A DNA stretch of 64,000 nucleotides, taken from positions 74,516-138,515 of the IMG/VR virus record IMGVR_UViG_2843020057_000001; one strand, written 5' to 3'. Below, in pieces: positions 2,408 to 61,724 of this stretch. The position numbers and the translations under genes were made by a program. Below the pieces are notes generated by a model. It was not told where the DNA came from and did not search any database. It was given only the letters and a program-made list of their open reading frames with translations. Positions within the stretch are counted from its first letter, which is position 1. Each line of letters opens with the position of its first letter. Origin of the DNA: a virus (Duplodnaviria; Heunggongvirae; Uroviricota; Caudoviricetes).

Positions 2408-4345
2408 TTATAGTTGTTTAGCAGCGATATAACCCTCGTGAATTGCATCATAAATCTGACGAACATACTTTGAGTCTCCAACATTGAAAACTTGCATATT
2501 TGTTTCTTCAGTTAAGCGGTCATAAAGTTCATGTTGTGGAATAAATCCTGCCGCAGAAATAAGCATATCAGCAGGAATCATTTTTTGATTTCCAAAACGA
2601 TCAACTAAAGTTAGCTTCTTATCAGTTAAACTAGTCGGTCTTAACCCTGTTAACACCTTAATATTGGTTTTGCTAATAGCGTATGCATAAGCACGACTAC
2701 TAGATGATGTTGCTTGATGAGACAAAAAATGATCGGTAACTTCAACAATTGTTACATTCTTACCAGATTTATTTAATTCTAGAGCAGTTTCAGCACCGGT
2801 AATACCTCCACCTATAACAACAATATTCTGACCATTTGCTTTTTGACTACCATTAAGATAATCCATTGCTGAAATAATTGAAGCACCATTTTTTGCACCA
2901 TTAATTTTTAAGTTACGTTCTTTACCACCAATAGCAACTACACAAGCATCAAAATTATCGGCTTTTATATTGTCTACAGTAGCCGTTTCATCAATAACAG
3001 ATATGTTTTTATTATGAGCAATTTCATGGTGATAATATTTTATTAGGTTATTAATGTTTCGCTTATTATCTGGGACGGCCGCTTCAATCATCGCGCCACC
3101 AAGCGCTCTCTTTTCATATAGAGTAACCTTATGTCCGCGCTGAGCAGCGACTAGTGCCGCTTCGCAGCCCCCTGGCCCTGCACCAACAACGGCTACTTTC
3201 TTGGCTTCCTTCGCCTTGGTATGATCATCATTTTCGAAATGGTACAAAGATGGATTAACGGCACAGTGAATAACATTATTACTTAATAAGCCACGATCTA
3301 AGCATCCGACTAGGCAGTTAATGCAGGGAACTATATCTTCAGGATGACCTTCCTGTGCTTTCTTAGCCCACATTGGATCTGCCAACAGTGAACGACCAAG
3401 CGCAACGAAATCTCCGGCTCCCTTTTCGAGCGCATCTTCAGCTTCGATAGGTGTAAAAATATTATGTCCTGCAAAGCAAGGAATGCTTACCGCATCTTGA
3501 ATAGCTTTGGTTTCTTTATTATTAAATTCATTTGGCATTAAAAATTCACGGTCCGAAGTTGCATGTGTACCACAGATTAGATTAATGTGCGAACACCCTG
3601 CTTTTTCAAGTGCTTTTGCTACTTGGATTGTTTCATCTAATGTAATTCCGGCAGGTTCCCAATCTTCTGTAGATAGTTTTACGCCAACTGGAAAGTTAGT
3701 CCCGCATTTCTGCTTAATATTTTGAATGATCTCTAAAAGGAATCGCATTCGGTTATGTAATGACCCACCGTACATATCGGTTCTTTGATTATCATGTGGC
3801 GAAAGGAAATTAGTTGGTAAGCATCCTGCAGCACCATGAATTTCTAAAATTTGAAAACCGGCCTTTTTACAACGTAAGGCTGCATCACCAAATTTTTCCA
3901 CTAGGGAATGAATTTCATCAATTGTTAATGCACGCGGTAATTTTGCACCATGTTGATACCAAGGCTCATAAGTTACTGGTGAAGCAGCAACTACGTCCTC
4001 GCTTCCAACAAAACCAGCGTCACGACCGGGGTGAGCAATCTGCATTCCAGCTACTGCCCCATTTAGTTTGACAGCATCGGCTAGGCGAGATAATCCAGGA
4101 ATAAAACGATCATCATCAGCTCGCAACCCGCAAGATGTCATAGCAACAGGAGTAACGTTATCCATAAAAATTAGACCAGCACCGCCCTTAGCTGCTTGTG
4201 CATATGCCTTGATTTGATCCTCACTTACAGAACCATCAGGATTACCAAGGTATGTGCCCATAGAATTGCGAACAATCCGATTTTTTATCTCCACGTTACC
4301 TATCTTCCCATGCCTAAATAACTTTGGGAAATATTGATTTTTCAT
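2408..4345 (-). CDS. NADH:flavin oxidoreductase, 2-enoate reductase/2,4-dienoyl-CoA-reductase-like (OYE TIM-barrel + 4Fe-4S Cys cluster + FAD/NAD(P) domain)
   Basis: N-terminal Old-Yellow-Enzyme-like FMN domain. Cys motif CINCLVGCLDRGLLSNNVIHCAVNP. GxGxxG VAVVGAGPGGCEAALVAAQRG and a second Rossmann VVIGGGITGAETA. Confidence 0.8.
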   Translation of the reverse strand: MKNQYFPKLFRHGKIGNVEIKNRIVRNSMGTYLGNPDGSVSEDQIKAYAQAAKGGAGLIFMDNVTPVAMTSCGLRADDDRFIPGLSRLADAVKLNGAVAGMQIAHPGRDAGFVGSEDVVAASPVTYEPWYQHGAKLPRALTIDEIHSLVEKFGDAALRCKKAGFQILEIHGAAGCLPTNFLSPHDNQRTDMYGGSLHNRMRFLLEIIQNIKQKCGTNFPVGVKLSTEDWEPAGITLDETIQVAKALEKAGCSHINLICGTHATSDREFLMPNEFNNKETKAIQDAVSIPCFAGHNIFTPIEAEDALEKGAGDFVALGRSLLADPMWAKKAQEGHPEDIVPCINCLVGCLDRGLLSNNVIHCAVNPSLYHFENDDHTKAKEAKKVAVVGAGPGGCEAALVAAQRGHKVTLYEKRALGGAMIEAAVPDNKRNINNLIKYYHHEIAHNKNISVIDETATVDNIKADNFDACVVAIGGKERNLKINGAKNGASIISAMDYLNGSQKANGQNIVVIGGGITGAETALELNKSGKNVTIVEVTDHFLSHQATSSSSRAYAYAISKTNIKVLTGLRPTSLTDKKLTLVDRFGNQKMIPADMLISAAGFIPQHELYDRLTEETNMQVFNVGDSKYVRQIYDAIHEGYIAAKQL

Positions 4346-5832: not shown

Positions 5833-6771
5833 TTAATTTGCAAAATCATCTTTATTGATTCTGTATATGTGATAAGTCTTTTCTACTTCAACTCCTACCC
5901 CATATTGAACCATTAAGTTAGTGAGCATTTCACCATCAATAGTCGTAATGTTTAGGTTTTGTGCTGCTTCTTCTGCACCAGTAGTAAATGATGAAGTGGT
6001 AATAAATACACCTCGATCAGTGTGCTTAAGCTTAACTGCACCGCTAAATGATGTAATCTCGGGTCTACCAACTGGATTATTTGGCGCATACCTTTTAACT
6101 TGCAGATAAACCTTTTGAAGCCCCAGTGCGTCTTGATAAATCACACCGTCAATACCATTGTCATTTGACTTTTGAGTAACGATTGATTGGCCATTTGGCC
6201 CCTTATAGCCCATTCTATTTAGTAGTTCAACCATAAGGCCTTCAAAAGCATACGGATTCATTTCAGTTAGTTTTGCAAGTAATTGATCTTTCAACTCGTC
6301 TGTCTTCTGACTAAACCAGTCTTGAATCAATTCCTCACTAAATGAATTTAGACTTTCTGAAGCGTCACTATTGGTATTCTTAGCTTTAACTAATTTAGTT
6401 TGATGTTGCTTATATAACGGTTCTTCATGGACTACAGCCCTAGTCAAATTCAGCCCATATTTTTTCCAAGCATTTTTTCCAAGTTGAGTTATCTCATATT
6501 CTCCTCTTTTAGGTGAATGTAAATAACCTGCAATTTTTAGATCGCTAAGTGCAAAGCCAGCACGATTTTTAGCAACGTTACCCATATATTTTGAGTTGTA
6601 CTCTTTATTCCTTAACTCATCAGGAAGGTCTAATTCATTTACTGCCGCCGTCTTTAATTCATCAGCTGTCCATAACGGCTTATTCGTAGCGAGCTTCAGA
6701 ATAATGCCTAAATAAGCATCCCAAGTCGGCATACCATCAGAACTATGTTTTAGTGTAGTATAATCAATCAT
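5833..6771 (-). CDS. mrr: Mrr-family restriction endonuclease (Mrr_N winged helix + Mrr_cat)
   Basis: C-terminal PD-(D/E)xK Mrr catalytic region (...GIDGVIYQDALGLQKVYLQVKRY...FITTSSFT). N-terminal Mrr_N-like domain. Confidence 0.7.
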   Translation of the reverse strand: MIDYTTLKHSSDGMPTWDAYLGIILKLATNKPLWTADELKTAAVNELDLPDELRNKEYNSKYMGNVAKNRAGFALSDLKIAGYLHSPKRGEYEITQLGKNAWKKYGLNLTRAVVHEEPLYKQHQTKLVKAKNTNSDASESLNSFSEELIQDWFSQKTDELKDQLLAKLTEMNPYAFEGLMVELLNRMGYKGPNGQSIVTQKSNDNGIDGVIYQDALGLQKVYLQVKRYAPNNPVGRPEITSFSGAVKLKHTDRGVFITTSSFTTGAEEAAQNLNITTIDGEMLTNLMVQYGVGVEVEKTYHIYRINKDDFAN

Positions 6772-7605: not shown

Positions 7606-7974
7606 TCATTGCTCATTATCCGGGGCTGTGAATATGTCAATGATATCTGCCTGTAGATTTAACACCTGCCCGAGCTTTTGAATTATTTTGGCCTGTGTTT
7701 CAGCTATATCAGAATAAAGACCGGTGATTTGGGATGAAAGCTTTTGTCGCTCTTGTAGAACATTAACGGCTGCCTCAGGAAGACCAAATATAGCCGGGTC
7801 TTCAACTTTTTTAATTGCTTGATCCATTTTAGCATCCATTTCAATCAGGCGAGGATCCTTAAGCATTCCTTCATAGTTTTCAACAAGTTGCTTTTGAAAA
7901 TTTATTTGGTCCCATACATCAACAATTTCTTGTTGCTTTGCATTTACCTTTGCATAGATTTCATTTTTATCCAT
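7606..7974 (-). CDS. hypothetical coiled-coil protein, possibly 5th gene of the mod-res operon
   Basis: Starts 48 bp downstream of the SNF2 gene on the same strand. Heptad-like sequence. Confidence 0.4.
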   Translation of the reverse strand: MDKNEIYAKVNAKQQEIVDVWDQINFQKQLVENYEGMLKDPRLIEMDAKMDQAIKKVEDPAIFGLPEAAVNVLQERQKLSSQITGLYSDIAETQAKIIQKLGQVLNLQADIIDIFTAPDNEQ

Positions 7975-8022
7975 AATTTAGCCTCCAAAAATTTATATTG
8001 TAAAACATCCATTTTATAAAGC

Positions 8023-9915
8023 CTACTTATATCTTCCCATTACAACGTCTTTAACTTCTTTAAGATAGTCATCAGTATATTCCGGCACCAGAAGCTGTCC
8101 GTCGATAGCATCAAGCATAACTTTCTCCTTATCTTTTAACTTCTTATAAACCGTATTATCAATAAAGCCCATATGAGCAACATCGCCCTTGGTCATTAAA
8201 TAATAATATCTTGTATACTGATTTGATGGTAAACCAAGGCGATTAATACGATCACGGGATTGTAACATGAAGGTCAGATTAAAATTGTATTCAAAGTAAA
8301 CTGCATCATGTACCGTTTGATGCAGCGATATAGACTCACCCAAAGTGTTAGGATTAGACACTAATACCTGTACATCACCGGTTCGAAAATTATCTATCAT
8401 TCCTTCGCGGTCTTGCTTAGGCGTTGCACCATATATCAAAGTTGTCTTAATTCCCATACTATTAAGAGTATCGGTAATCTTTTGCATAGTGCCAACAAAC
8501 ATTCCCCAGACAAGAACCTTCTTACCTTGACTGACTAGTTTATCAATTAGATCAATGCCCATTTCAAATTTAGGTGCTTCTATTTTTACCAAATCATACT
8601 TTTTATATGCTTCTCCACTACTCATATTTTCTTTTTCAATTGAGGTAGATTGTTTACTCCAAACACCTGAATCAGCGTCAATTAAGCCTAATTCTTTATA
8701 GTTAATATTGGTCGCTAATAATTCAGGATTTGTTGAAGCTTGTAATAACCTAATAAAGGTTGCTAATGCACCATTCTCGTTTTCATAAATTGCTTGTGCT
8801 AGTACCTCCTGATTCTTAGACGGAGCTACTTCTTTAATAATATCTGGATCAGGCTTAGGAACGTGTAAATCTCGTTTATTGGTACGCCAGAAAAACGGGG
8901 ATAGTTTTCTGTTCACATCTTCAGGATCAATATTATTTAAAGTGGTTAAATCCCAGGTAAAGAATGAGGAATATTCATCAGGATACATCAAGTGTAAGAA
9001 ATTATAGATATCCCTAAATCCATTTGGAATAGGGGTCCCAGTAAGCACGTATCGATAATGAGGCGCCTGACTAAGGCTAAGTGCTGCTCTAGCTCTTTGA
9101 CCACCAACACCCTTAACCCGGTGAACTTCATCAAAGACTAACATTGTTTTAGAATCCAGCAGGTCGTTAATAATATTTAACTTGCTTTGTAAAGACTCAT
9201 AATTAATTGTGATTACATCAGCTTGAACCCAATCATGTTTAATGGCTCCAGTATTATTATTGTATTTTTTATCTCGCATATTGAGATAATGAAGTTCTCG
9301 TTTAGGACCAAAGACTGCCTGAAATTCTGTACGCCAAGCAGCAAATGCGTTCAATGGTGAAATTACTAAAAGCTTATTTACCTCATTAACTTTGGGACTG
9401 GATAAATAAGCAAAGGTCCCATACATCATAGCAGTTTTTCCTGCGCCTGGTACTGAAAAATTAGCAGCCCGCTTCATAATTGTCATGAAGAAACTGGCTT
9501 TTTCTTGTTCTGGCTTAAGTGGTCGTGTTATTTCCTGACTAACAACTGATTTAAAGTTTTCAAACTCTTTATGCCAGCGAGGATCTCCGTCCTTGATTGT
9601 AAGCCCAGCCTGACTTTGCTCTTTAATATAGTATTGGCGCTGTTGAACAAACTGATTGAACTTATTACTAGTCTTCACTTCAGGCAAGCCCTTACGTTGT
9701 AAACGTCGGTTAAGCTTCTTTATTAGCTCTAATAATTGAACATATGTTAAGTCACTTTTAAAAGTTCGTTGCTCCGAATTTTCAAAATATGGCGCAAAGA
9801 TAGCTAATCCCCGCTGAGCTGTTTTACTTTCAAGAGTTTTAGCCTCATCATCTATGAGTTGAAACAAGCCATCATTATTTTTAATTATGATTGGACTATC
9901 TGATTTCATCACCAT
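8023..9915 (-). CDS. SNF2-family DEAD/DEAH helicase
   Basis: Walker A GAGKTAMM. DExH FDEVHRVKG. SNF2 motif III LTGTPIPNGFRDIYNFLHLM. C-terminal helicase domain. Start overlaps the stop of the upstream gene. Confidence 0.8.
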   Translation of the reverse strand: MVMKSDSPIIIKNNDGLFQLIDDEAKTLESKTAQRGLAIFAPYFENSEQRTFKSDLTYVQLLELIKKLNRRLQRKGLPEVKTSNKFNQFVQQRQYYIKEQSQAGLTIKDGDPRWHKEFENFKSVVSQEITRPLKPEQEKASFFMTIMKRAANFSVPGAGKTAMMYGTFAYLSSPKVNEVNKLLVISPLNAFAAWRTEFQAVFGPKRELHYLNMRDKKYNNNTGAIKHDWVQADVITINYESLQSKLNIINDLLDSKTMLVFDEVHRVKGVGGQRARAALSLSQAPHYRYVLTGTPIPNGFRDIYNFLHLMYPDEYSSFFTWDLTTLNNIDPEDVNRKLSPFFWRTNKRDLHVPKPDPDIIKEVAPSKNQEVLAQAIYENENGALATFIRLLQASTNPELLATNINYKELGLIDADSGVWSKQSTSIEKENMSSGEAYKKYDLVKIEAPKFEMGIDLIDKLVSQGKKVLVWGMFVGTMQKITDTLNSMGIKTTLIYGATPKQDREGMIDNFRTGDVQVLVSNPNTLGESISLHQTVHDAVYFEYNFNLTFMLQSRDRINRLGLPSNQYTRYYYLMTKGDVAHMGFIDNTVYKKLKDKEKVMLDAIDGQLLVPEYTDDYLKEVKDVVMGRYK

Positions 9916-11206
9916 ATTTGACGAACAACTCCTTACTTAGTTGGTTCAAGTCACGCATATATCTTTGTAACTCTTTTAACTGATCCTCAGTTACTTCGTT
10001 GTAACGTAAACTGCCAATTAACCCACCGTCTTCATTTAGGTCATGGTAGTATTTAACATTCTGCTTAATGTTGCGAATAAACTTATCAACAGATTCACTA
10101 TTACGAGCATTCCGCATATAGGTATCAAAAGTATCTCCTAAAGCTTCAACTGTCTCGTTTTCATCCGTTAAACTTTGCATCAAGTCTGAAGTATCATGTA
10201 TTTCATCATCTTGAAGCGAATCTGATAAATCATCAACCATGTCGGCAACGTCATCATTGAAGTCTTCATTATCTACACTATTTACAATATTTTTACTATA
10301 TTCACGAATATGAGTACGTGCTGTATTACCACTAACTCCGACATGAATTTGATAAAGAATAATCCCAAAATAAGAATTCATGGTTTCATTTTTACGAACT
10401 TGTGATTCTGGATCATCACCAAAGTTTTTGGACAACGATTTCCCCATTTCGTAGAAAAGTGACCAAGCTTTACTTTCCTTAATAATATTGAAATTATTTT
10501 CCGGAGCACCAATAAACTCCAAAAATTTTTTCATATATACAGCACCATCATAATATTTTTTAACTTCAGTGGGTCGCATATGTGAATCAGCCGCATAATC
10601 TGCTTGGGTCATAATTGGATCATCGCCACTGGTGGTCTGGTAGATATCAACAGCCAAATCAACTGGATCATAATCTTGTCGCTCTTCAACACCCATTTGA
10701 ATAGCTAATTCCAATTTTTTGATTTTAGCTCGCTCAGTAGTGTTGTCATATGAGAATGGCAAAACAACAGCTTCAAAATAAACCGTCTTACCAGTATCTT
10801 GATGAATATCGCGTAATGTTGTAAAGCGCCGATTACCATCTACAATTCGTCCATCATCTAATACATAGCCATACACTTGTTGGCCCGCTTCAGTAATAGA
10901 CTTCTTAGTTCTTTTCAAAGCAGTCGGATTATCCTGCTCAATCAACTTAGCTACAAAGTTATTGTATTGAGGATTGTCCTTTTCGTTTGCTGGCTGCAGT
11001 TGACCTTCATATTGTGAAATACCAGTTGCAATCCGGCCATTCTTATCATTGTAGTAAAGGTACTCTAATGGAATCTTGTAGACGTCTAGAGTCTCCGAGC
11101 TCACACCATCAACCTTAATTGGTAATTTCGGCTTAGCTCCTGTTTTCTCTAGTTTCCCTTCTTTAGCTAATTCAATCAATGATAACATTCTAGTCCAACT
11201 CCCCAT
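9896..11206 (-). CDS. ParB/Srx-like nuclease-domain protein
   Basis: N-terminal ParB-N pattern KIPLEYLYYNDKNGR and GxRR box IVDGNRRFTTL. Acidic C-terminal half. Start and stop overlap neighbours (translational coupling). Confidence 0.6.
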   Translation of the reverse strand: MGSWTRMLSLIELAKEGKLEKTGAKPKLPIKVDGVSSETLDVYKIPLEYLYYNDKNGRIATGISQYEGQLQPANEKDNPQYNNFVAKLIEQDNPTALKRTKKSITEAGQQVYGYVLDDGRIVDGNRRFTTLRDIHQDTGKTVYFEAVVLPFSYDNTTERAKIKKLELAIQMGVEERQDYDPVDLAVDIYQTTSGDDPIMTQADYAADSHMRPTEVKKYYDGAVYMKKFLEFIGAPENNFNIIKESKAWSLFYEMGKSLSKNFGDDPESQVRKNETMNSYFGIILYQIHVGVSGNTARTHIREYSKNIVNSVDNEDFNDDVADMVDDLSDSLQDDEIHDTSDLMQSLTDENETVEALGDTFDTYMRNARNSESVDKFIRNIKQNVKYYHDLNEDGGLIGSLRYNEVTEDQLKELQRYMRDLNQLSKELFVKYGDEIR

Positions 11207-14180
11207 TTTCTAATTTATTAATCAAGTCATGTACTTCTTGTTCACTCGTAGCCATACGATAGTAAACCCCTGATTCTCTCAAATGATCAAAATATTTCTG
11301 CTGAATAATACGGATTTCATCATCACCAAGTCGCATATTCTCTGCTTTAGTTTCAATTACAAGATATACTGGCTTATTGCCATGCTCGATCTTAAATATA
11401 AAATCTGGCGTAGTTGTTCCGTTATCAAAACGTGGAATCTTAATAGCCCTCTTAGGTAGTTTTCCAAATACACTAATCTTGGGGCCATATGATCGTTTCA
11501 ATATTTTCAGCTCTGGATCAGCACTGTCATATCGCAGTGGTGGCCGATCATACAGGTATTTCTCATCAGAAGACGAATCGGATTGGTAAACACCCAACAC
11601 ACTTGCTGGCACTGAATCAACAAATTCATGTTTCTTCGCATTATAAACTGAAGTAGACGCTGAGAAATCTAATGGCTCGTAGCTGTATGAAGTTTTAATT
11701 CTCTCATTAAATTGTTTATTAAAAGTATGAATCAAATTGCCCAATGTTTTTTCATTAATGTACTTCTTATTGTTTTTTAAACGCTTAATCGCCTTAATCA
11801 TCAGATTATTCAGTAAATTAACTGATAGGTCTGTTTGCTGGGCTAAAATCTTAAGAAACTTACCATATTTCATTGGTGGATAATCAACGCCATAATCACT
11901 CTGCGTTTCTTTAAGCGAGGCCGAACTATCATTAACGTCAACCTTTTGATGAATCATTTGAGGACGTTGTAAAACAAAGACCTTATTATCACTATCATTG
12001 AAAACATTGCGAGCAACTGTTTCGGCATCTTGATTAACTGATGGAGTAAATTTAATCATCCGACGTTTAGCTAATTGCAACCACAAGTTCTTTAATTGCT
12101 GCCAATTTTGCTTGCGTAGCTTAACATTTGTGCTGTCTTTTGAATTTTTATCTCGAACCTTATCCTTAGCAACTTTAGTTTCTTGGACTAATTCTGGATA
12201 AAGATGACACAACGCATCATAGCCGGTCATCATTTGACCATCTAATTCAACGTTTTCTTTAAATTTGTTAGAACGAGTAATCACATTATGGGCATCTAAA
12301 TCATCAAGTAGCTGGTCCTCATCAAACTTAGGATCAGTTTTTTGTTTAGCTTTAACAATCAGCTTGATCATGTCATCAGTTAATTCTTCTTGGTTCAGTT
12401 TTATCGGTGAATCATCATTAATTTTACCTACTAACTTTTGAGCAAAATCTCGTTCATCATAACCTATTAAGAAAGATAGACGACTCTGCCACTCATCCTG
12501 ATTCAAACGGTGACCAGTTTCATCAACTGGAAGCCGTAAACCACGACCAACTTCCTGAATCTTGTTGATTTCTGAGCCAGAAGTCCGCAACTTAGCAATC
12601 GTAAAGACATTTGGATTATCCCAACCTTCACGTAGCGTCCACTTAGAAAACAGAAAGCGACGAGTAAGCCAGTTACCGTCTTTATCCTTAAAGCTAAGCA
12701 ACTTTTCCTTGTTGTTTAAAATATCCTCAACTTCCGCCTGGATATCCGCATCTGAACTGTCACGATCCTTGCTGAAATAACTGGCATAAACGTTCTGGTG
12801 TTCCGACTGTAAACTCTTCAAGGTAGCCAGTAAAAAGGAATGATACTCTTTTTCTCGGTCATCAATTGCTAATTCATAGTGATCAATTAATGTCTTCAGC
12901 TTTTTAGTTAAAATTTCTTCGAAGTGCTGAGCAAGCCAACCTTTACTATTGTTTTCTGCACGAAAGCTGGAAATACTATCAATGAAGAATAAAGACAAGG
13001 TTTTTATCTTAGGTGCATTATCCCCCGAATTTGGACGCAAGAAGTTCTCCTCTTCCGCCTTAAAATGACAATCTAATGCTTGCGAAATAATCTCATCCTG
13101 ATAATTTTGAGCAAAAGTACCAGGAATCAGCTCCATATCTTTGGACAAAGCTAATCCATTTGATAATTCACGGTCACCGACATAGGTAATATTACCCTCA
13201 AAGCCAGTATCGATGTCCGCTAAATTTTCACCGACGTTCATTGAATAATCTTTACCATCTTTAGTCAAGACTAATTCTTTATTTCTATTTTTAAATTGCT
13301 TGACTTTGTACAAGTTATTAGCTTGTTCTTCCGGCATATCTGGGTAATAGATATCGATTCCCTTAACTAAACCTTGATTAAAGCTATCGACGGCATCCAA
13401 GTTGAACTGAGGTTCACCACGGTAATAATCAATCTTAGTAACCTTGTTTTTGCCACGCCCACTTGTTGTTACCGGGAAAGTAGCCCCAAAGCGGACAATT
13501 AACTGAGGCTTCATCTCTTCAATATCTTTATAGAATTTTTTGCCCCGTGGGAAACGCTGCGGTTCATCAATAATCACCACTGGCCGCGTGGCAGCAATAG
13601 CTTGAAGTGGTTCGGTTTCTCCACCCAAGAGTGTTTGATCAAAAATGTATGGTTTTTTCCTACGTGGCATCATATACATAGAATGGAGCATTCCTTGGTT
13701 AATCAGCAAAACTTCAATTTGGTTAGCATTCTGCCTAGTTGCTTCCACAAATTCAGAAAGCTGAGCTGGGAAGTTACGGCGTCCGGAGCGCGCACTAAAA
13801 TCACCCGCGTTAATAACGTTTAATTGCACTCGGGTATTTTCATAAAATTCACTAAAGTGCTGCTTAGCATAATCACTACTGATAAAACTGCGGGTACCTT
13901 CCTTAATACTTGGACTTGGCACCGCAATCACGAACTTGAATAAGCCATACTTTTGGTGAAGGTCATACATCATCCGGGTGTAAACATAAGTCTTCCCAGT
14001 CCCCGTTTCCATCTTAATGTCAATGTTAGCTTTATCGTTATAACGGTATCTAATCAATGGATTGGCATAGATGTAATTAGCATTTGGGTCATTGGACATG
14101 GTGTCCATACCAGGAAATGCTTTATCAATGGCAGCTAAGGCATCTGTTTGGTGTTGTAAAGTTTCTAGTTTAATCTTCAT
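11190..14180 (-). CDS. res: Type III restriction-modification Res subunit (helicase + C-terminal PD-(D/E)xK nuclease)
   Basis: Walker A METGTGKTY. Motif II VIIDEPQRF. C-terminal nuclease-like PDFIF...LVIETKAENMR. Immediately downstream of mod with a 4-nt gap. Confidence 0.75.
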   Translation of the reverse strand: MKIKLETLQHQTDALAAIDKAFPGMDTMSNDPNANYIYANPLIRYRYNDKANIDIKMETGTGKTYVYTRMMYDLHQKYGLFKFVIAVPSPSIKEGTRSFISSDYAKQHFSEFYENTRVQLNVINAGDFSARSGRRNFPAQLSEFVEATRQNANQIEVLLINQGMLHSMYMMPRRKKPYIFDQTLLGGETEPLQAIAATRPVVIIDEPQRFPRGKKFYKDIEEMKPQLIVRFGATFPVTTSGRGKNKVTKIDYYRGEPQFNLDAVDSFNQGLVKGIDIYYPDMPEEQANNLYKVKQFKNRNKELVLTKDGKDYSMNVGENLADIDTGFEGNITYVGDRELSNGLALSKDMELIPGTFAQNYQDEIISQALDCHFKAEEENFLRPNSGDNAPKIKTLSLFFIDSISSFRAENNSKGWLAQHFEEILTKKLKTLIDHYELAIDDREKEYHSFLLATLKSLQSEHQNVYASYFSKDRDSSDADIQAEVEDILNNKEKLLSFKDKDGNWLTRRFLFSKWTLREGWDNPNVFTIAKLRTSGSEINKIQEVGRGLRLPVDETGHRLNQDEWQSRLSFLIGYDERDFAQKLVGKINDDSPIKLNQEELTDDMIKLIVKAKQKTDPKFDEDQLLDDLDAHNVITRSNKFKENVELDGQMMTGYDALCHLYPELVQETKVAKDKVRDKNSKDSTNVKLRKQNWQQLKNLWLQLAKRRMIKFTPSVNQDAETVARNVFNDSDNKVFVLQRPQMIHQKVDVNDSSASLKETQSDYGVDYPPMKYGKFLKILAQQTDLSVNLLNNLMIKAIKRLKNNKKYINEKTLGNLIHTFNKQFNERIKTSYSYEPLDFSASTSVYNAKKHEFVDSVPASVLGVYQSDSSSDEKYLYDRPPLRYDSADPELKILKRSYGPKISVFGKLPKRAIKIPRFDNGTTTPDFIFKIEHGNKPVYLVIETKAENMRLGDDEIRIIQQKYFDHLRESGVYYRMATSEQEVHDLINKLENGELD

Positions 14181-14183
14181 GGT

Positions 14184-16274
14184 TTAGTACCTCTTGATTA
14201 AAGTTACTTTACTGTCTAGCTGTTTTAAGCCATTTTCCAGTTCACGCAGTTCTGCCACGTTAAAGGAGTAGCCAAAAATAACCACACTTTGGATTTCTAA
14301 TTGACGAGTACCAAGTTGGTTGAGTAATTCTTTAGTTTGGCTTGCTCCCCAACCTTCATTAACCAAGTAAAGTCGATTATCTTCAACTTTATGCGCGGTG
14401 TAGTTATCAAACTTAACTTCTTCAACATCAGCATCAAATGGATAACCATCCTTAGCTAACCATGTAGTCAGAATAGTTTCTTCACCTGTGGCATCCCCAT
14501 CTATTTTTAGGCTTTCACTAGAAAAGCCATCGACCATATTGGTAAACAAGTCAGTGTTGTTTGGATTAAAGTCTTCAATATCTTCCAAGGTTTGCTTAAC
14601 TGGTTTGACAACTCGATAGTGCTTAAAGCTGCCGTCAAAGTCTTCAGGCAAAGTTAGTTCATTATCTTCACGAATCTTTTTAGCAGCACGACGAATACGT
14701 TCACGAGAGATTTCGTCGATGGATTTAAAACCAGCATCATATGCTGCTTTGCCACCTGTAGTAGGTATCTTTTGGCCCCTTTTATCTAAAATGGTTTTTC
14801 CCGTATCTTTATCAACTTTGTAAGTCTTTTCTGGTAACTGAACCATAATAAACTTACGATGTCCACCATCCTCAGCATTAAGTTGCATTACTGCATCTGC
14901 TGTAGTACCTGAGCCTGCAAAAAAATCAAAAACCGTAATATTTTTACTGCTAAACAACGTTAAAAATAATTTGATTAAATCAGTACTCTTTGGTGAAGAA
15001 AATACCTCACGGTTATCAAAAAGTAATTTGAGTTTTTGTTTGGCCTTTGTGGTAGTTAGATCTAGATGATAATCAGTAGGCTTATTGTTAATAATTGCTT
15101 GATACTTTAAATTGGTTACGATACTTTTTAATCTTTTCGTTGTACTAAAATTTTTTTCAAAAATTTTAGTATCTGTAAACTGTAACGAATTAGTTTCAAA
15201 AAGTTCCATAAATTTATCTATAGAGTACGTATTTTCTACAAATTTATTATTTCTTTCTGAAATATATCGAATATATCCTTCACCAATTAATTCATTATCA
15301 ATATCGAGTATGTCCTTCTCTTTTCTAAAATGAATTTTCTGTTTTTCGGGCTGATAGTAAACGCTGTAATGTTTTTTAGAACTGTAGTTAGTAACTACAT
15401 CATTAAATTTATTTTCCCCTACCAGAACGCGTTTTCCGCTATTATGAACGAAATTACCATTCTCATCTTTAATCATTTCTGTAGATCTTTTCGGTATGTT
15501 TTCAATAAATTTAGCTTCATTAATTTTTTTAGCGTATAAGATGGCAAACTCACTGCTAACGGAAATAAACTTAGAGTTTTTTCTGCCTTTAGGATTATTT
15601 TCGACTGATAAATTTCCAATAAAATTATCCTCACCAAACACTTCATCCATTAATAATTTTAAATTGGCTTGTTCATTATCATCTATAGAGACAAACATCA
15701 CGCCTTCATCAGTTAGTAGCCTTTTTGCCAAAGTTAACCTTGGATACATAAATGTCATCCATGCAGAATGACTAGACCTTCCTTGAATACTTTTTAGTCG
15801 TGATAGTTGATCATCGTTAAGTTCAAACATTTCTTTTAACTTATCATCAGAGTATTCAAAATTATCTGGATAAACAAAATCATCTTTACCAGTGTTATAT
15901 GGAGGATCAATATAGATCACATCAACCTTATTTGTATATGCAGTTTGTAAATGTCGTAATACTTCGAGATTATCACCAGTAAAGAACAGGTTATTACTGT
16001 CCTTCCCTTCACCCTTATTTTGTTTCTCATCAGGGACAATCACCGTTGTCGGCATCTCACCTGCTTGACGCCGCGCATAATCTTTACCAATGAAATCTAG
16101 CTGATAACCTTCACTAAGTTCATTGCTGTTCTTTTCTTCTAGTTGCTCCTTGAACTTTTCCAAATCGAAGAAGCCATTTTTATTAAAGAACTCTGGCAAT
16201 TTATCTTTCAATTCATTTAAAAAGGCTGTGTTCGGCTGTACGGATTCATTATATTTTTCAGCATCTGTCTTCAT
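14184..16274 (-). CDS. mod: Type III R-M Mod subunit, N6-adenine DNA methyltransferase (beta class)
   Basis: DPPY motif VIYIDPPYNTG precedes the FxGxG motif FDFFAGSGTTADA (circularly permuted order typical of Type III Mod). Confidence 0.85.
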   Translation of the reverse strand: MKTDAEKYNESVQPNTAFLNELKDKLPEFFNKNGFFDLEKFKEQLEEKNSNELSEGYQLDFIGKDYARRQAGEMPTTVIVPDEKQNKGEGKDSNNLFFTGDNLEVLRHLQTAYTNKVDVIYIDPPYNTGKDDFVYPDNFEYSDDKLKEMFELNDDQLSRLKSIQGRSSHSAWMTFMYPRLTLAKRLLTDEGVMFVSIDDNEQANLKLLMDEVFGEDNFIGNLSVENNPKGRKNSKFISVSSEFAILYAKKINEAKFIENIPKRSTEMIKDENGNFVHNSGKRVLVGENKFNDVVTNYSSKKHYSVYYQPEKQKIHFRKEKDILDIDNELIGEGYIRYISERNNKFVENTYSIDKFMELFETNSLQFTDTKIFEKNFSTTKRLKSIVTNLKYQAIINNKPTDYHLDLTTTKAKQKLKLLFDNREVFSSPKSTDLIKLFLTLFSSKNITVFDFFAGSGTTADAVMQLNAEDGGHRKFIMVQLPEKTYKVDKDTGKTILDKRGQKIPTTGGKAAYDAGFKSIDEISRERIRRAAKKIREDNELTLPEDFDGSFKHYRVVKPVKQTLEDIEDFNPNNTDLFTNMVDGFSSESLKIDGDATGEETILTTWLAKDGYPFDADVEEVKFDNYTAHKVEDNRLYLVNEGWGASQTKELLNQLGTRQLEIQSVVIFGYSFNVAELRELENGLKQLDSKVTLIKRY

Positions 16275-16650: not shown

Positions 16651-16866
16651 TTACTTATTTTTTCTCGGATCTTTCATACCCGTTATTGCTTCCATTCCTT
16701 TAGTGGTAACAACCCATGCTTGACCAAATTTACGGATTGAACCGCTTGGAAATTTATCTGGATTTTGCTTATAGTATGTTCTTACATACCCATTATTTTT
16801 ACCCCATATCTTGGCTGCCTCTTTGGCATCCATAATATCTGGGGTATCTAAATTTATATCTTCCAT
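16651..16866 (-). CDS. HTH_17/excisionase-like DNA-binding protein
   Basis: ~60% identical to 16309..16611 over the HTH region. Sits upstream of mod on the same strand. Confidence 0.5.
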   Translation of the reverse strand: MEDINLDTPDIMDAKEAAKIWGKNNGYVRTYYKQNPDKFPSGSIRKFGQAWVVTTKGMEAITGMKDPRKNK

Positions 16867-26303: not shown

Positions 26304-26678
26304 TGGAGTAGACGGGAGTCGAACCCGTGTCCAACCAAATCAGTTTCCAAATACATTTTAGACTTATTAGGATTATGTACTTAACTCTTAAGCTTAGACA
26401 GTCACACAATCATTTTCCAAAGGCTACCTAAACCGATCTAGTTTTATTACTTCATCACAACCAAACTAGCAAACGGCGGACAAAGACCAGAGGGGTGAAA
26501 TATGATAGCTAATATCCTTATCTGGTATCAAAATATTAACCAAGTGCCTATAAGCTAGGCAGCTAAAGCTGTAACTCTATGGTTATTTGCTTTTATATTT
26601 AAATGAAAGTATTTCGGCGTTATCTTCCGTAAGTCGTATTTAGGGCTTTATTTGACTGTCGAATCCATAAACTACCCC
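26304..26678 (-). ncRNA. ssrA: tmRNA (ssrA), tag reading frame ending ...ALAA-stop
   Basis: 5' end GGGGTAGTTTATGGATTCGACAG matches the tmRNA consensus GGGG...GGAUUCGAC. Acceptor GGGGTAG/CTACTCC with G3:U70 and A73 (Ala identity). 3' T-arm ACGGG-TTCGACT-CCCGT. Internal frame GCA AAT AAC CAT AGA GTT ACA GCT TTA GCT GCC TAG (ANNHRVTALAA*). Confidence 0.8.
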
Positions 26679-26740
26679 AGAATAGAGCTTTAAATCATAG
26701 CTCCAAATAATAATTCAAATCGACTTCTTAATGAAGTCTA

Positions 26741-26812
26741 TAACACGTACAGGATTCGAACCCATATCTCCACATTACCATAGTGGTGCTTCCCCATTTA
26801 AACTAACGTGTT
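26741..26812 (-). tRNA. putative tRNA-Thr(GGU), unusual A1-U72
   Basis: Manual fold. Acceptor AACACGT/ACGTGTT+A. D-arm GTTT/AAGC. Anticodon stem CCACT/TGTGG (one mismatch), loop ATGGTAA. T-arm ATGGG-TTCGAAT-CCTGT with wobbles. Confidence 0.45.
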
Positions 26813-27169
26813 ACTTATATATCAAAATATTTCTTGTGGTGGAACCCCTAACAGCTTTTGCCTTATTCCACATTTGTTCCTACTAGCTTCATAGGATGGG
26901 CATAGTCCTTATCCCTGCTAAGGGGCGCTGTCGTTACTCGCTGAATGTTTTGATATGTTCTTGTTAAGGGAGACCCATTTCGAGACCTTAACATCGCTAA
27001 CTTAGAAATCTCCTTTGTTCCTAATGCTAAAGACCGCGGGTGTTTCGGAACTCAGCGAAATTTCACTATTAACTGGTGATCAACCCCACTCACGGATTCC
27101 GCACATGCCTACGCTCCGTCAGCGAATATTGTACCTGTCTTTTATAAAATCCTGATTTTAAAAACAGGA

Positions 27170-27242
27170 TGGACCTTGCAGGACTCGAACCTACGACCGA
27201 GCGGTTATGAGCCGCCTGCTCTACCAACTGAGCTAAAGGTCC
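27170..27242 (-). tRNA. tRNA-Ile2(CAU, lysidine type) / Met-CAU
   Basis: rc reads GGACCTTTAGCTCAGTTGGTAGAGCAGGCGGCTCATAACCGCTCGGTCGTAGGTTCGAGTCCTGCAAGGTCCA. Cloverleaf is canonical. Sequence closely resembles Firmicutes tRNA-Ile(LAU). Confidence 0.85.
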
Positions 27243-27514
27243 AAAATGATAGACCATAAACCGCAAACTTGTCTATCCGTGAGCGTTTAATCCAATCTCA
27301 TATTTGCAACTATGTTTTCGGCAACTAAGCTCACAAGTATAAATGATTACTGCTGACACCAATGATCATTCATATCTGCTGACTCGATAGATGAATATCG
27401 TTACGACTGTGTCAGGTCGCCGTGTTACACCTAACAGGCGGAGGTTGTTTTAGTTAATTAATGTGTGCTTTTTAATTTTCACTGGCACGCAGTAGCACAT
27501 TTAAGGAACTGCAA

Positions 27515-27586
27515 AGCGGTTAACGAGACTCGAACTCGCGACAACAGCTTGGAAGGCTGTGGTTTTACCAGTTAAACTATAACCGC
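27515..27586 (-). tRNA. tRNA-Trp(CCA)
   Basis: rc GCGGTTATAGTTTAACTGGTAAAACCACAGCCTTCCAAGCTGTTGTCGCGAGTTCGAGTCTCGTTAACCGCT. Anticodon stem ACAGC/GCTGT, loop CTTCCAA. Confidence 0.85.
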
Positions 27587-27781
27587 ATTAGAGAGGTGAT
27601 TTATTTATATTCGCAGCTACACCCCACTGCTATCACATGCCAACAATACTAGGCATCCTACCCTACCCTCGTGTTGACTTCGAGACACCAGTTTTACAGT
27701 CTATGTTTCCAAGAACACACTGGATTTACTCTCCGCTCCGTTAAGTGAAATACAATTCTAGCGACGGCACACTAGAACCAA

Positions 27782-27855
27782 CTGCGAATATCGGATTTGA
27801 ACCGATGACACAAGGTTTAACAGACCTCTGCTCTAACCAACTGAGCTAATTCGCA
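27782..27855 (-). tRNA. tRNA-Asn(GUU)
   Basis: rc TGCGAATTAGCTCAGTTGGTTAGAGCAGAGGTCTGTTAAACCTTGTGTCATCGGTTCAAATCCGATATTCGCAG. U1-A72 and G73 as in bacterial tRNA-Asn. Anticodon loop CTGTTAA. Confidence 0.85.
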
Positions 27856-28360
27856 AAATTTAGAGAACACGATTAATCACTTCATATTCTCAAAGTAACA
27901 AGGATAGTTGATTAGTCCTATCGCTGAGGCGCACATTTAAGTACGTTGCTCTCCTTTACATACCAACCACTACATTCAAAGCGTTGACGCTTGCTACTCT
28001 AACTGCCCAGGACAGGATTCGAACCTGCTACCTCAGGGTCAATGTTTTTCAACACGCGCGTGTATCCCTGCGCTCTCGCCAAATATTTCGAGCTACCTAG
28101 ACGTAATAATGTCCACCCAGAAACGTTAGATAGTGAACTAATAAGTTAAGAGCTTGTTGACTGTGCTAAGTATCAGTCTGATTACTCTTAGAGCTTATAT
28201 CTTTTTATGGACATTGACTTAGCAATTCTGTCCGCGATTAATCACTACTATTTCTAGTAGATACCTTCGCATTGCGAAGATGTGGCCTATAACTAGGCAA
28301 ATCATTTTCAGACAGTTCAGTCGATCTTAAGCTGACCATTCTATAAAGAACTATCTGAAA

Positions 28361-28415
28361 TAGTCCTGTTGGGAATCGAACCCAATTAATCTTCCTAGTA
28401 CCATCAGACAGGACT
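28361..28415 (-). ncRNA. 55-nt armless tRNA-like element
   Basis: Perfect acceptor AGTCCTG/CAGGACT+A and T-arm TTGGG-TTCGATT-CCCAA. Only 25 nt between acceptor and T-arm. Shares a CTAGGA core with the 26005-26064 element. Confidence 0.25.
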
Positions 28416-29186
28416 CCAAACATAATACATGTATTTTTTCGTTACACCATCTTTAACGTGCGTGTTGAAAATTGTTACTAAAAGTCGCCGACACGGGACT
28501 ATCTTTCCGAAACCACAATTTAGGGGAGTGGCAATCCCGACAATAAATGTCGATTAAGGAGTCAAAGCTCCACGTTAATCTGATTAATCTTTAACAAGAC
28601 AGCCTCTTTCTTATCTGTCATACCTATTTCTTTTGCATTCTCTGAGCACGTGCTCTCTTGAACACCGAGGTGGGTAATTATGCTGTATTTCGAAGCCCTA
28701 CGTGAGCCGTAATCAGATTATATAAATAAGTTTATTATCTTATCGCTGTTACAACAGCAATTTAAAGATGGAAAACTTTATAAAAGAAGCATTTTACTAA
28801 CAGAAGGCATAAACTGTCATTCTTCCCACTAGCGGTCAGAACTTTTTCTAGACTGCTTTTTTATTTTTCAAATACTCCCGCCAATAACTAGTATGACTTG
28901 CAATCTTGTATTTGTATTATTCAGGGTGTAGATTACCAGAGCACCCGAACCTGCAACCCGAGAATTAAACTCAGCATTAACTTAGGCAATATCTGCATCG
29001 CAGGTAGTCGCACACGCAACCATAGCAATAAGAAGCGTGGCATCAATCACATTACGAGCATTAGAAACTCCTCCAGTTGTGAGTAGGATACCTCGTATAA
29101 ATCACATTACTGCCATTTATACTCAAGCGCTTCAACCGACACACCTGTTGCCGGTTTCCCTATTATACATATCCATATAACAGAAA

Positions 29187-29269
29187 CACCTAGAGAGGGA
29201 TTTGAACCCCCGAACCCGAAGGAACGGTTTTGGAGACCGTCGCGTTTGACCAGACTTCGCTATCTAGGT
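29187..29269 (-). tRNA. 83-nt type-II-like tRNA with anticodon loop CTCCAAA (CCA) and 12-nt variable region
   Basis: Acceptor ACCTAGA/TCTAGGT+G (7 bp perfect). Anticodon stem ACGGT/ACCGT perfect. Variable region TCCTTCGGGTTC with a UUCG-like mini-hairpin. T-arm GGGGG-TTCAAAT-CCCTC. Confidence 0.4.
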
Positions 29270-29424
29270 ATTAATAACGTGCCATGCCAGCGTAAACACG
29301 TTATTAGATCGAATTGAAAAATGTAAAGGTAAAGGTATATGGAAAACATAACCTATTGAACATACGTTAGGTGTTTTTACATTCCAAACGTTTTCCGTCA
29401 TTTGAAACAACCTATTGCTAGGAA

Positions 29425-29493
29425 TTTCGGCAATGGGAATCGAACCACATATCTACACCGCACAATGTTGCTCTACCATTGAGCTATGCCGAA
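29425..29493 (-). ncRNA. tRNA-like element with irregular anticodon arm (possible pseudo-tRNA)
   Basis: Acceptor TTCGGCA/TGCCGAA+A perfect. Canonical D-arm GCTC-AATGGTA-GAGC. T-arm with one bulge. Only 18 nt for anticodon arm plus variable loop. Confidence 0.35.
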
Positions 29494-56457: not shown

Positions 56458-56552
56458 GTCTTAATTTTAGAATTTTTTAGTGGTTGACCTCGGCGACAAG
56501 TAATATAGCTGAGTGAACTCACTTTCAATTCATTTATTAAGTTTGTGCCTTT

Positions 56553-56581
56553 ATTATATAGCCTTAAGTCTATATTGTCAA
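56553..56581 (-). promoter_or_regulatory. promoter P3 (TTGACA-17-TATAAT)
   Basis: Same unit as P2, with one mismatch in the palindrome (tatagccttaagtctata). Confidence 0.7.
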
Positions 56582-56663
56582 GAAGTAATTTTGATTATTT
56601 TTGAAAACCTATGCTAGTTCGATGACTGCTATTTTTGTTTTCTTAATCAACTTTACGGCCTTT

Positions 56664-56692
56664 ATTATATAGCCTTAAGTCTATATTGTCAA
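56664..56692 (-). promoter_or_regulatory. promoter P4 (TTGACA-17-TATAAT)
   Basis: Same unit. Copies are spaced ~111-125 bp. Confidence 0.7.
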
Positions 56693-56705
56693 GAAGTAAT
56701 TTTAG

Positions 56706-57040: not shown

Positions 57041-57715
57041 TTTTATTTTTATATAAGGAAAGAAAAAAATAATAATGGTATTGATATATATGTATATATG
57101 TATGTATGTATATGTATATGTATGATTGAGTAAGTGAGTGATATATATGTATATGTATATATGTATGTATATGTATGTATGGTTATGTATGTATATATGG
57201 TTGTATATATGGTTGTATATATGTATGTATATATGTATGTATATATGTATATATGTATGTATGTATATGTATGTATATATGTATGTATGGTTGATTGAGT
57301 GAGTGATTGAGTGAATAAGTGAGTTAGTAAGTGAGTGAATAAGTGAGTGAGTGTATGTATGATAACGCTTTCATATGTTATTGTATGATGGATCAAATGA
57401 ATATGTATATGTATTGAGTGAGTTAGTAAGTGAGTTGGCTGGTAGGGTAAACGGTTGTTTATTATATAAGGGGCGTGGATTGAGTTATTAAGTGAGTGAG
57501 TAAGTGATATATATTATTGTGTTTGTTTGATGTGTTTGGTTTATTTGGTCGGTGGTATGGTGTGAGTGTAGTGTAGTGATTAATTAGTGAGTTTGGTTGG
57601 TAGGGTTATTGTGTTAGGTTGGTTGGGAGTGGGTTGGGTAAATATATAGTTTTTTATTATGGTTGGGGGTGTGTTTATTATTATGTTTGTTTGGTGTGAT
57701 AGCTGATTACTATAT
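57041..57715. repeat. ~675-bp strand-asymmetric low-complexity region: top strand essentially C-free, built from (TATG/TGTA)n and (GTGAGTRA)n microsatellite-like repeats and G/T-rich GGTTGG tracts
   Basis: Direct count gives ~11 C residues in ~675 nt. Repeats tatgtatgtatatgtatatg..., gagtgattgagtgaataagtgagt..., ggttggtagggtt...ggttgggagtgggttgggt. Confidence 0.85.
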
Positions 57716-60515: not shown

Positions 60516-61724
60516 CTATTTAGCGTGATCTACAATAAATTCAAGACCGTCCCTATTCAATGTCTGAGCCTTTTCTTTTGGAATCCAAATTACGGGAACT
60601 ACTTGACCACCGTTAAAGTCTTTTAGCTTATCTTCCAACTTCGTGCGGAGCATTGTTTGGTCTTTCATAGGAATTGATCCACCGCCATGAACGTAAACAA
60701 CTTCAATTGTAGCTCCTGCTTTACGAACAGAACGACTAACTTCAGTCACAATACGGTCACAAAATGGTTCTAATTGTGCATAAACAACCTTTTGTACTGC
60801 CTCATACCGTCCTCTTGATAATGGACTTGGTTTTGTTGCTAAGAATTCTTTTAATTCTGCAACACTGCTAAAGTTGAACTTCTTATCTCTAAGTACCTCA
60901 AGTGCTTCTTCAAGAGCATTATCATATCCTTCTGACAATGAATATGATGCAGATACAAGAGCTTTTCCATTAACAATTACAACAATATCAACTGTTCCGG
61001 CACCAATATCAATAGAAACTACATTTTTGGCTTGGATTAAGTCCTCTGCTTTGACTAAGGAAGCCATTTCTGGATAACGTGTGTCGAAATCTTCTTTAAT
61101 CTTCTTGGTTAAATCTTTATCTTTCCCTGTTGAGATAAATAATTGGGCTGTTTCACCTTCTGTAGCAACAAATACCTTATCAAATTCAATCGTCACCGTA
61201 ATAGGGTTTTTAAAATTATGAAAAGTTACTTGGTGAGTACTTCCTGCATATCGTTCACGATACATATTCTTAGTCTCAATATTGCTACCTTCTTTAACAG
61301 GAAGAGCTGCCGCCATACGGGTATTTACTTTAAGTGGTTCTGATAAGTCTTTACCTTCCTCATATGCTTGTTCTACGGCTGCACCTGCAATCATACTCAA
61401 TGTAAGAATTAAAGAATAGTCACTTTCGGCCTTGCCAGCATAATCATTAATATCGAAATGAGTTAATGGTAAGTTTTGGTCAATGGCATTTTGTCCGATC
61501 AAGAATCGACCTGGCGTCTTTATTGAACTACTAGAAATTGTTACATCCATATGATTAAGAAATTCTTTCATATATTCGTCTTTTTGACTCTTGCTTTCGA
61601 ATTCAACTGGGGAAGCAATATCTTGTTCACGTTCAATGGTAAATACAGATGGGAATTGAATTTCCTTATCGTCAATTATTGCTTTGACTGAGCCATATCC
61701 TAAGTCGTTTGCTGTTTTCATCAT
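60516..61724 (-). CDS. parM: ParM/StbA-family actin-like segregation ATPase
   Basis: Actin-fold phosphate 1 DLGYGSVKA. ~400 aa. ...DIGAGTVD... phosphate 2 and ...VHGGGS... adenosine motif. Confidence 0.75.
   Translation of the reverse strand: MMKTANDLGYGSVKAIIDDKEIQFPSVFTIEREQDIASPVEFESKSQKDEYMKEFLNHMDVTISSSSIKTPGRFLIGQNAIDQNLPLTHFDINDYAGKAESDYSLILTLSMIAGAAVEQAYEEGKDLSEPLKVNTRMAAALPVKEGSNIETKNMYRERYAGSTHQVTFHNFKNPITVTIEFDKVFVATEGETAQLFISTGKDKDLTKKIKEDFDTRYPEMASLVKAEDLIQAKNVVSIDIGAGTVDIVVIVNGKALVSASYSLSEGYDNALEEALEVLRDKKFNFSSVAELKEFLATKPSPLSRGRYEAVQKVVYAQLEPFCDRIVTEVSRSVRKAGATIEVVYVHGGGSIPMKDQTMLRTKLEDKLKDFNGGQVVPVIWIPKEKAQTLNRDGLEFIVDHAK

Follow-up and report, generated by a model that had tools for sequence, protein, structure and literature searches.

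A conserved four-gene cassette joins a StyLTI-family Type III restriction–modification pair to AbiRb/c-like ParB-fold and SNF2 genes

The DNA analysed here, a stretch of 64,000 nucleotides from an IMG/VR record assigned to Caudoviricetes (IMGVR_UViG_2843020057_000001, positions 74,516 to 138,515; hereafter the window), carries a cassette of four genes in which a Type III restriction–modification (R-M) pair, mod and res, is followed by genes for a ParB/Srx-fold protein, here called X, and an SNF2-family ATPase. The cassette is a StyLTI-family Type III operon plus a pair resembling AbiRb and AbiRc of the lactococcal AbiR system, without AbiRa and without the AbiRc nuclease domain, and is not categorically new. 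With a probability of roughly 55%, we read it as a composite operon in which the Type III system captured an AbiR-type pair, with X–SNF2 acting as a methylation-gated accessory arm. Neither PADLOC nor the literature searched has a name for the Type III-linked four-gene form, and PADLOC would label the cassette a plain Type III system. Its genes are the following.

14184..16274, minus strand: mod, Type III N6-adenine DNA methyltransferase and specificity subunit, 696 aa
11190..14180, minus strand: res, Type III restriction subunit, superfamily 2 (SF2) ATPase with a C-terminal PD-(D/E)xK nuclease, 996 aa
9896..11188, minus strand: X, ParB/Srx-fold protein with a long helical C-terminal half, AbiRb-like, 430 aa from M7
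9896..11206, minus strand: longest open reading frame of X, 436 aa
8023..9915, minus strand: SNF2, SNF2-family ATPase/translocase, 630 aa, AbiRc-like without the N-terminal PLD/PbeA-type nuclease domain

An open reading frame (ORF) scan returned exactly the coordinates that a preliminary description of this DNA had given for mod, res, X, SNF2 and a 122-aa ORF further downstream, all on the minus strand. That description had the four genes overlapping by 4–20 nt at each junction. This holds for X and SNF2, which overlap by 20 nt at an AAGGAG site, but mod and res are separated by a 3-nt gap, and the 17-nt overlap of res with X exists only if an upstream ATG lacking a Shine–Dalgarno site is used. 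The homologues of X begin at M7, which lies 1 nt past the res stop codon and is preceded by a GGGGAG Shine–Dalgarno site; because this start is shared by the homologues and has such a site, X is taken as a protein of 430 aa, with a 1-nt gap after res. A Shine–Dalgarno site is present at every cassette junction. The tight packing of the four co-oriented genes is consistent with a single operon, as is the translational coupling that had been proposed.

A scan of one genome per species yielded 317 relatives of X, of which the best 80, together with plasmid hits, were examined for gene context. The order Mod→Res→X→SNF2 was found in 42 of 42 loci whose X is at least ~36% identical to that of the window. 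These loci belong to Lactobacillaceae, Oenococcus, Enterococcus, Lactococcus, Weissella, Bacillus/Priestia/Ectobacillus, Mammaliicoccus, Aerococcaceae, Erysipelothrix and a Streptococcus metagenome-assembled genome (MAG). The cassette occurs at ~80% nucleotide identity on lactobacillus plasmids, and an 8.7-kb plasmid of L. paracasei N1115 consists essentially of its four genes. It is also often chromosomal, within defence islands where its neighbours include GmrSD, PLD, HNH and Mrr; Priestia and Apilactobacillus chromosomes carry it with X identities of 44–53%. The identities of the four genes to those of the window co-vary (r = 0.94–0.99; 19 loci) down to ~40%, and in a tree of X the Type III-linked proteins form one clade, apart from the clades linked to 5-methylcytosine (m5C) methyltransferases and PLD and to sigma-like proteins. 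Many genera of Lactobacillaceae share SNF2 copies of ~91% identity, a sign of recent horizontal spread.

The earlier suggestion of a composite rather than a plain Type III system is borne out by this co-inherited extension of two conserved genes, invariant in order and unnamed. The alternative of chance juxtaposition had been tied to finding the ParB-like and SNF2 genes elsewhere without mod and res, and never in this order. The pair is indeed widespread without mod and res, but chance does not account for the Type III-linked form, which is a single clade with an invariant gene order. A phage origin of the module was rejected, as IMG/VR holds only eight relatives and the cassette region has no phage match.

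By its sequence, the Mod–Res pair is a canonical StyLTI-family Type III R-M system. Mod has the N6_N4_Mtase and T3RM_EcoP15I_C domains (Pfam), matches PADLOC MTase_III over its full length (1.4e-197) and retains its catalytic motifs, DPPY at residue 123 and DFFAGSG at residue 450 (FxGxG). Res, encoded directly after mod, passes the NCBIfam equivalog NF012027 for Type III endonucleases (1329 bits; cutoff 564), contains ResIII and RE_endonuc (Pfam), matches PADLOC REase_III with E = 0, and has intact GTGKT60, DEPQ205 and PD925...ETK945 (PD...ExK) motifs. The original assignment of the two genes to Type III therefore stands: Mod combines DPPY, the S-adenosylmethionine motif and an EcoP15I-type C-terminal domain, with Res next to it. 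What departs from the type is the gene number, since two more conserved genes are coupled to res at the 42 loci. Among two-gene relatives, the nearest is a StyLTI-like system of Salmonella, whose Res is 53% identical to that of the window and which is plain mod and res, with nothing after res. Likewise, compared with canonical Type III systems (StyLTI, EcoP15I), the window has the same full-length and intact Mod and Res, the same mod-then-res order and the same tight coupling, but the canonical operons end at res.

Across loci, Mod varies far more than the other three proteins. In the window mod, the central segment of low GC (14848–15705) shares 96% DNA identity with mod genes of Enterococcus faecalis plasmids, to which the operon outside this segment is unrelated in DNA sequence; this is consistent with an inter-genus exchange of the target-recognition domain. 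Phase variation of mod was rejected, as a search of the gene for a simple-sequence tract found none.

Searches of X against Pfam (up to E ≤ 10), PADLOC and NCBIfam returned nothing, and a profile of 34 homologues searched against the PDB returned coiled-coil noise and a marginal ParB match (E~0.9). An AlphaFold model built from a 25-sequence alignment was confident, with a predicted local distance difference test (pLDDT) score of 88, and comprises an N-terminal α/β domain followed by an all-helical half of ~250 residues. The only meaningful Foldseek matches of the model in the PDB were Spo0J and the N-domain of pNOB8 ParB, and 5K5D is the top PDB match of X. Invariant residues of the family are N52, N55-G-R57, D117-G-R, D122-G-N-R-R126, K162, E165 and Q169, and the motif (I/V)DGNRR parallels the (I/V)DGQQR nucleotide pocket of DUF262/GmrS. 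From the model and these motifs, X is assigned a ParB/Srx fold and probably binds nucleoside triphosphates (NTPs). The earlier ParB/Srx call is thus upheld for the α/β fold and the GxxR-type phosphate-binding motif, but not at the level of profiles, as neither ParBc (PF02195) nor any significant ParB profile matches. The resemblance is confined to the N-terminal ParB/Srx fold, and the helix-turn-helix (HTH) and dimerisation domains of ParB are absent from X. Source annotations nonetheless call its homologues 'chromosome partitioning protein ParB' or 'ParB/RepB/Spo0J family partition protein'. The family comprises at least 1159 clusters at 50% identity, and one member weakly matches GmrSD_N.

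The 630-aa protein downstream contains SNF2-rel_dom and Helicase_C (Pfam), is related by phmmer to yeast Snf2 (4e-16), Sth1, INO80 and Sulfolobus (Sso) Rad54, and has intact GAGKT157, DEVH262, TGTP292 and QSRDRINRLG552 (QxxDRxxRxG) motifs, in agreement with its first description as an SNF2-family helicase. Its PADLOC matches to DpdE, DrmD and ZorD are weak and partial (1e-8 to 1e-14) and fall on the generic helicase core; in NCBIfam, DrmD scores 33 bits (cutoff 610) and DpdE 18.6 (cutoff 500). The analogy with Dpd and DISARM that had been drawn is therefore not sustained. A SNF2-family ATPase alongside a DNA-modification function is common to the window and to these systems, but DrmA/DrmB (DUF1998), DrmC, DpdA/B/C and 7-deazaguanine genes are missing from the window. 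With helicase-core matches below curated cutoffs and no defining partner gene among the neighbours, membership in either system was rejected. X was also compared with GmrS, BrxU, SspE and DndB (DUF262/ParB-Srx NTPases), with which it shares the ParB/Srx fold, the (I/V)DG-x-x-R pocket motif and a part in modification-based immunity; X differs in matching neither DUF262/GmrSD_N nor ParBc, in its helical C-terminal half of ~250 aa and in its obligatory SNF2 partner.

At more distant loci, X is followed by SNF2 and Type III genes are absent. Hosts of such pairs include Streptococcus, Dialister, Oscillospiraceae, Paenibacillus, Cohnella, Lysinibacillus, a spirochaete and a Methanomassiliicoccales archaeon; judged across these loci, the deeper conserved unit is the X→SNF2 pair. 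Its partners fall into four classes. In one, a protein of 800–1140 aa with RNA-polymerase α-subunit C-terminal domain (α-CTD) repeats and sigma-70 region 4 (sigma70_r4/RNA_pol_A_CTD) is encoded directly upstream of X. This sigma-linked form is present on ~50 E. faecalis plasmids, with overlapping genes annotated as "sigma factor-like HTH", hypothetical or helicase. In streptococci, an m5C methyltransferase is encoded directly upstream of X, and a third class, on an L. argentoratensis plasmid, has X–SNF2 next to an R-M pair of dcm and a Sau3AI-family gene. In the last class, X is fused to HEPN_Swt1 or TIR and followed by the sigma-like protein, and SNF2 is absent. N-terminal HEPN (Swt1-like) or TIR fusions of X were found at L069, L074, L087, L057 and L076 (proteins P0154, P0155, P0180, P0192 and P0197); at the first three, the fused gene is followed by the sigma/α-CTD-like gene without SNF2, which looks like an uncharacterised two-gene system of the abortive-infection type.

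The SNF2 protein of many Type III-free loci is longer (852–890 aa) and has an N-terminal PbeA/PLD-type nuclease domain. The window SNF2 aligns only to the ~640 aa outside this domain: its residues 9–625 are 44% identical to the C-terminal ~640 aa of the 886-aa PLD-SNF2 proteins that partner X in Streptococcus. A further arrangement is the three-gene module of the Methanomassiliicoccales MAG (L051, 5200–11718), in which X and a PLD-SNF2 protein are accompanied by an upstream protein of ~900 aa with no sigma or α-CTD match in Pfam and with an N-terminal Type II restriction endonuclease (REase)-like domain (PADLOC).

The closest described system is AbiR. As summarised in a 2026 review, lactococcal AbiRa resembles sigma-70, AbiRb is ParB-like with 5K5D as its top PDB match (reported for AbiRii), and AbiRc combines an N-terminal restriction-endonuclease-like domain with a Snf2-type ATPase at its C terminus; AbiR impairs the replication of phage DNA, depends on the LlaKR2I methylase and is toxic in its absence. 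A 2025 preprint reports AbiRbc-like pairs without AbiRa, and AbiR genes are often associated with R-M systems (Makarova et al., 2013). The cassette shares with AbiR of L. lactis pKR223 a ParB-fold gene followed by a Snf2-type ATPase gene, and the top structural match 5K5D. An R-M methyltransferase is genetically linked in both, with dependence on it reported for AbiR, and relatives of X–SNF2 occur in sigma-like/X/SNF2 operons and beside Sau3AI-type (LlaKR2I-like) R-M genes. The window differs in that its SNF2 (630 aa) lacks the N-terminal nuclease domain, that no sigma/α-CTD-like AbiRa is encoded in or next to its cassette or at any Type III-linked locus, that its partner is a complete Type III Mod and Res instead of a Type II m5C methylase, and that its X belongs to a separate clade. 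Thus, AbiRb is matched at the level of fold only and AbiRc in its Snf2 part, while the AbiRc nuclease and AbiRa have no counterpart. PADLOC gave no AbiR-labelled match for the X or SNF2 proteins, none of the sources annotating X homologues uses the name AbiR, and the DefenseFinder supplements do not mention it. The Type III-free X–SNF2 loci, on our analysis, fit the description of AbiR closely.

If the cassette is such a composite, the four genes would be expressed as one translationally coupled unit and would be inherited and exchanged together. Mod would mark self DNA and would probably also provide sequence recognition. On unmodified incoming DNA, X, as a ParB-like loader or switch gated by nucleotide, would engage the SNF2 motor, and translocation of SNF2 along the DNA would either block phage DNA replication or feed or augment cleavage. 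Res would supply the nuclease lost from the SNF2 of this clade, and Mod and Res would take the place of the sigma-like DNA-binding partner: because the clade has lost both the AbiRa-like partner and the nuclease domain, recognition and cutting would most simply come from Mod and Res. A role of the X family in defence is shown by its members that are fused to HEPN_Swt1 or TIR.

Several observations weigh against this reading. The link to AbiR is inferred, by way of AbiR's published description, from architecture, context and a shared structural match, and PADLOC has no match for the distant members of the X family either. The L. plantarum A8 plasmid (NZ_CP058738; L090), whose backbone is shared with pLP140_p4, carries a natural and precise deletion of X–SNF2 with Mod–Res intact: after res, a 64-aa ORF annotated 'hypothetical protein' (2978–3172) consists of X residues 1–11 fused in frame to SNF2 residues 573–630. 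In Leuconostoc, X is reduced to a stub. Together with the two-gene Salmonella relative, the A8 scar and the Leuconostoc stub show that X–SNF2 is dispensable for having a Type III system and for the persistence of the Type III pair. Conversely, an insertion sequence (IS) splits mod at L026, where res, X and SNF2 are intact, and IS30 splits res on pLP140_p4-type plasmids (L101 and L102), where mod, X and SNF2 are intact; persistence of the pair beside a split mod or res fits some autonomy. The split loci are uninformative as to toxicity or methylase dependence, given possible polarity or a recent insertion. Finally, a methylase is usually missing next to the sigma-linked X–SNF2 operons, so gating by methylation may not hold for all such pairs.

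These losses and survivals, together with the X–SNF2 pairs found in many genomes without Type III genes and the tendency of defence genes to cluster through co-mobilisation, would suit an AbiR-like pair that is self-contained and merely travels with the Type III genes, with no functional interplay. We think this unlikely: the order is invariant, with junctions of 1 nt and 20 nt and no room for a promoter between res and X, the X proteins linked to Type III genes are monophyletic, and all four genes have diverged closely in step, down to ~40% identity. Having lost the sigma-like partner and the nuclease, moreover, the pair in this clade would be a lone motor with a ParB-fold protein, devoid of an obvious recognition or effector part. 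A functional connection of another kind would be a guard or backup as in PrrC, in which X–SNF2 monitors the Type III enzyme and is unleashed by a phage anti-restriction factor, leading to replication arrest or abortive infection. Genes embedded in R-M operons that sense REase inhibition are an established theme, and in PrrC/EcoprrI (Type Ic) an accessory defence gene likewise lies inside an ATP-dependent R-M operon and is inherited with it. AbiR, too, has been counted among the abortive-infection systems, with an effect on the replication of phage DNA, and the fusion of X to the suicide effectors HEPN_Swt1 and TIR suggests that X is a sensor or switch domain. Yet PrrC is a single anticodon nuclease sensing REase inhibition, whereas the window has two genes, no RNase and a different relation to methylation; the Type III-linked clade has a SNF2 motor only and no recognisable toxic effector (HEPN, TIR or PLD nuclease), and the toxicity of AbiR without its methylase points to gating by DNA methylation and not to the sensing of protein inhibition. 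A guard function is, on balance, also improbable.

Quite doubtful, in our estimate, is a variant in which X–SNF2 is no abortive-infection toxin but a modular, methyltransferase-guided, ATP-dependent restriction arm that uses whichever methylase is adjacent (a Type II m5C methyltransferase or Type III Mod) and a borrowed or carried nuclease. Type III enzymes cleave in an ATP-dependent manner and need two inversely oriented unmethylated sites, their asymmetric site being hemimethylated. Here, the cassette would encode a four-subunit Type III machine that, through its additional translocase and an NTP-gated clamp, could act on substrates beyond the reach of classical Type III enzymes, such as those with a single site or with sites in one orientation, which, if true, would close a known phage escape route (single sites, or sites all in one orientation). 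That X is a ParB-type partition or segregation protein and SNF2 a replication or repair helicase of a mobile element, as database annotation of X as a ParB partition protein and the megaplasmid-like window might suggest, is highly improbable. There is no ParA partner and X has no ParB HTH or dimerisation domain, the family includes HEPN and TIR fusions, and a partition function was rejected on these grounds; in addition, the cassette is frequently chromosomal and in defence islands, the pair is always joined to R-M or AbiRa-like genes, and the window already encodes a partition actin of the Alp7A type.

Type III R-M systems are regarded as consisting strictly of two genes, and annotation pipelines label only mod and res in the cassette, leaving X and SNF2 as 'hypothetical', 'ParB' or 'DEAD/DEAH helicase'. 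The four-gene form is widespread in Bacilli of industrial and clinical relevance (lactobacilli from food, gut and probiotics, enterococci, lactococci and bacilli), is horizontally mobile there, and bears on the phage resistance of starter cultures and on strain transformability. It also offers a tractable genetic route into the mechanism of AbiR, and the A8 scar plasmid, set against pLP140_p4-type plasmids, is a ready-made natural knockout of X–SNF2. The pair is always found beside a methylase or a sigma-like DNA-binding protein, and the presence of a nuclease varies with the partner, which suggests a testable rule for how such modules gain specificity and effector functions.

The cassette is flanked by the following genes.

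16651..16865, minus strand: HTH_59 paralogue, in tandem with the 16309..16517 gene, both encoding ~70 aa
16309..16517, minus strand: small HTH_59 gene, 69 aa from an internal ATG, 34 nt upstream of mod; backbone gene
7606..7974, minus strand: small helical ORF, 122 aa, 48 nt downstream of SNF2; not a conserved component
5833..6771, minus strand: Mrr-type Type IV restriction gene, defence-island neighbour downstream of the cassette

The gene next to mod matches Pfam HTH_59 (5.8e-13) and is separated from its paralogue by a hairpin; upstream of it are a promoter-like site (16577–16549) and a hairpin (16632–16602). The HTH genes are assigned to the plasmid backbone because the same gene, at ~90% nucleotide identity, occurs on L. 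reuteri plasmids without the cassette. No HTH_59 gene lies upstream of mod at the other loci examined, and a role as controller (C) protein of the cassette was rejected for a gene seen beside it in the window only and on cassette-free plasmids. It may possibly share a transcript with mod.

Downstream, no terminator-like site was found between SNF2 and the 122-aa ORF, which has its own GGAGG Shine–Dalgarno site and is possibly co-transcribed with the cassette; the first terminator-like hairpin (5790–5760) follows the Mrr gene. The preliminary description had listed it as a coiled-coil ORF 48 bp after the four genes. It has no family match in Pfam or PADLOC and no homologue beside the cassette at any of ~90 loci, and was dropped as a candidate fifth component. 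The Mrr protein contains Mrr_N and Mrr_cat (Pfam) and matches PADLOC mREase_IV (4.7e-55). An Mrr gene also adjoins the cassette in Apilactobacillus kunkeei and Ligilactobacillus hayakitensis (loci L005 and L006 in Apilactobacillus, and L021) but not at most loci, and Mrr was rejected as a conserved member. Its proximity may reflect a recurrent pairing of a methylating with a methylation-dependent system.

The remainder of the window (17000–64000) has a backbone resembling ~130-kb 'non-mobilizable' plasmids of Limosilactobacillus reuteri, with 83–85% nucleotide identity over about one-third of the 24 kb queried (17000–41000). Its phage-like genes for replication and nucleotide metabolism encode RecD2-like and DnaB-like helicases, a deoxynucleoside kinase, a nucleoside 2-deoxyribosyltransferase, an RNA ligase, PnuC and a Mre11-like phosphoesterase, and the actin partition gene (Alp7A/ParM-type) is at 60516–61724. 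The window is a megaplasmid-like lactobacillus replicon and may be a phage-plasmid. A minus-strand cluster at 26304–29953 contains six tRNA genes (Thr, Met, Gly, Asn, Trp and Arg) and a transfer-messenger RNA (tmRNA) gene with the tag peptide ANNHRVTALAA; an extrachromosomal tmRNA is unusual. At 57070–57530, a strand-asymmetric, microsatellite-like tract of ~450 bp is composed of T and G only, with units TATG/TATATG/TGAGTGAG and periods of 8 and 12, and accounts for a spike of +0.55 in GC skew. Close to it is a perfect direct repeat of 46 nt (56547–56592 and 56658–56703), and the region of the tract and the repeat may be an origin or iteron region.

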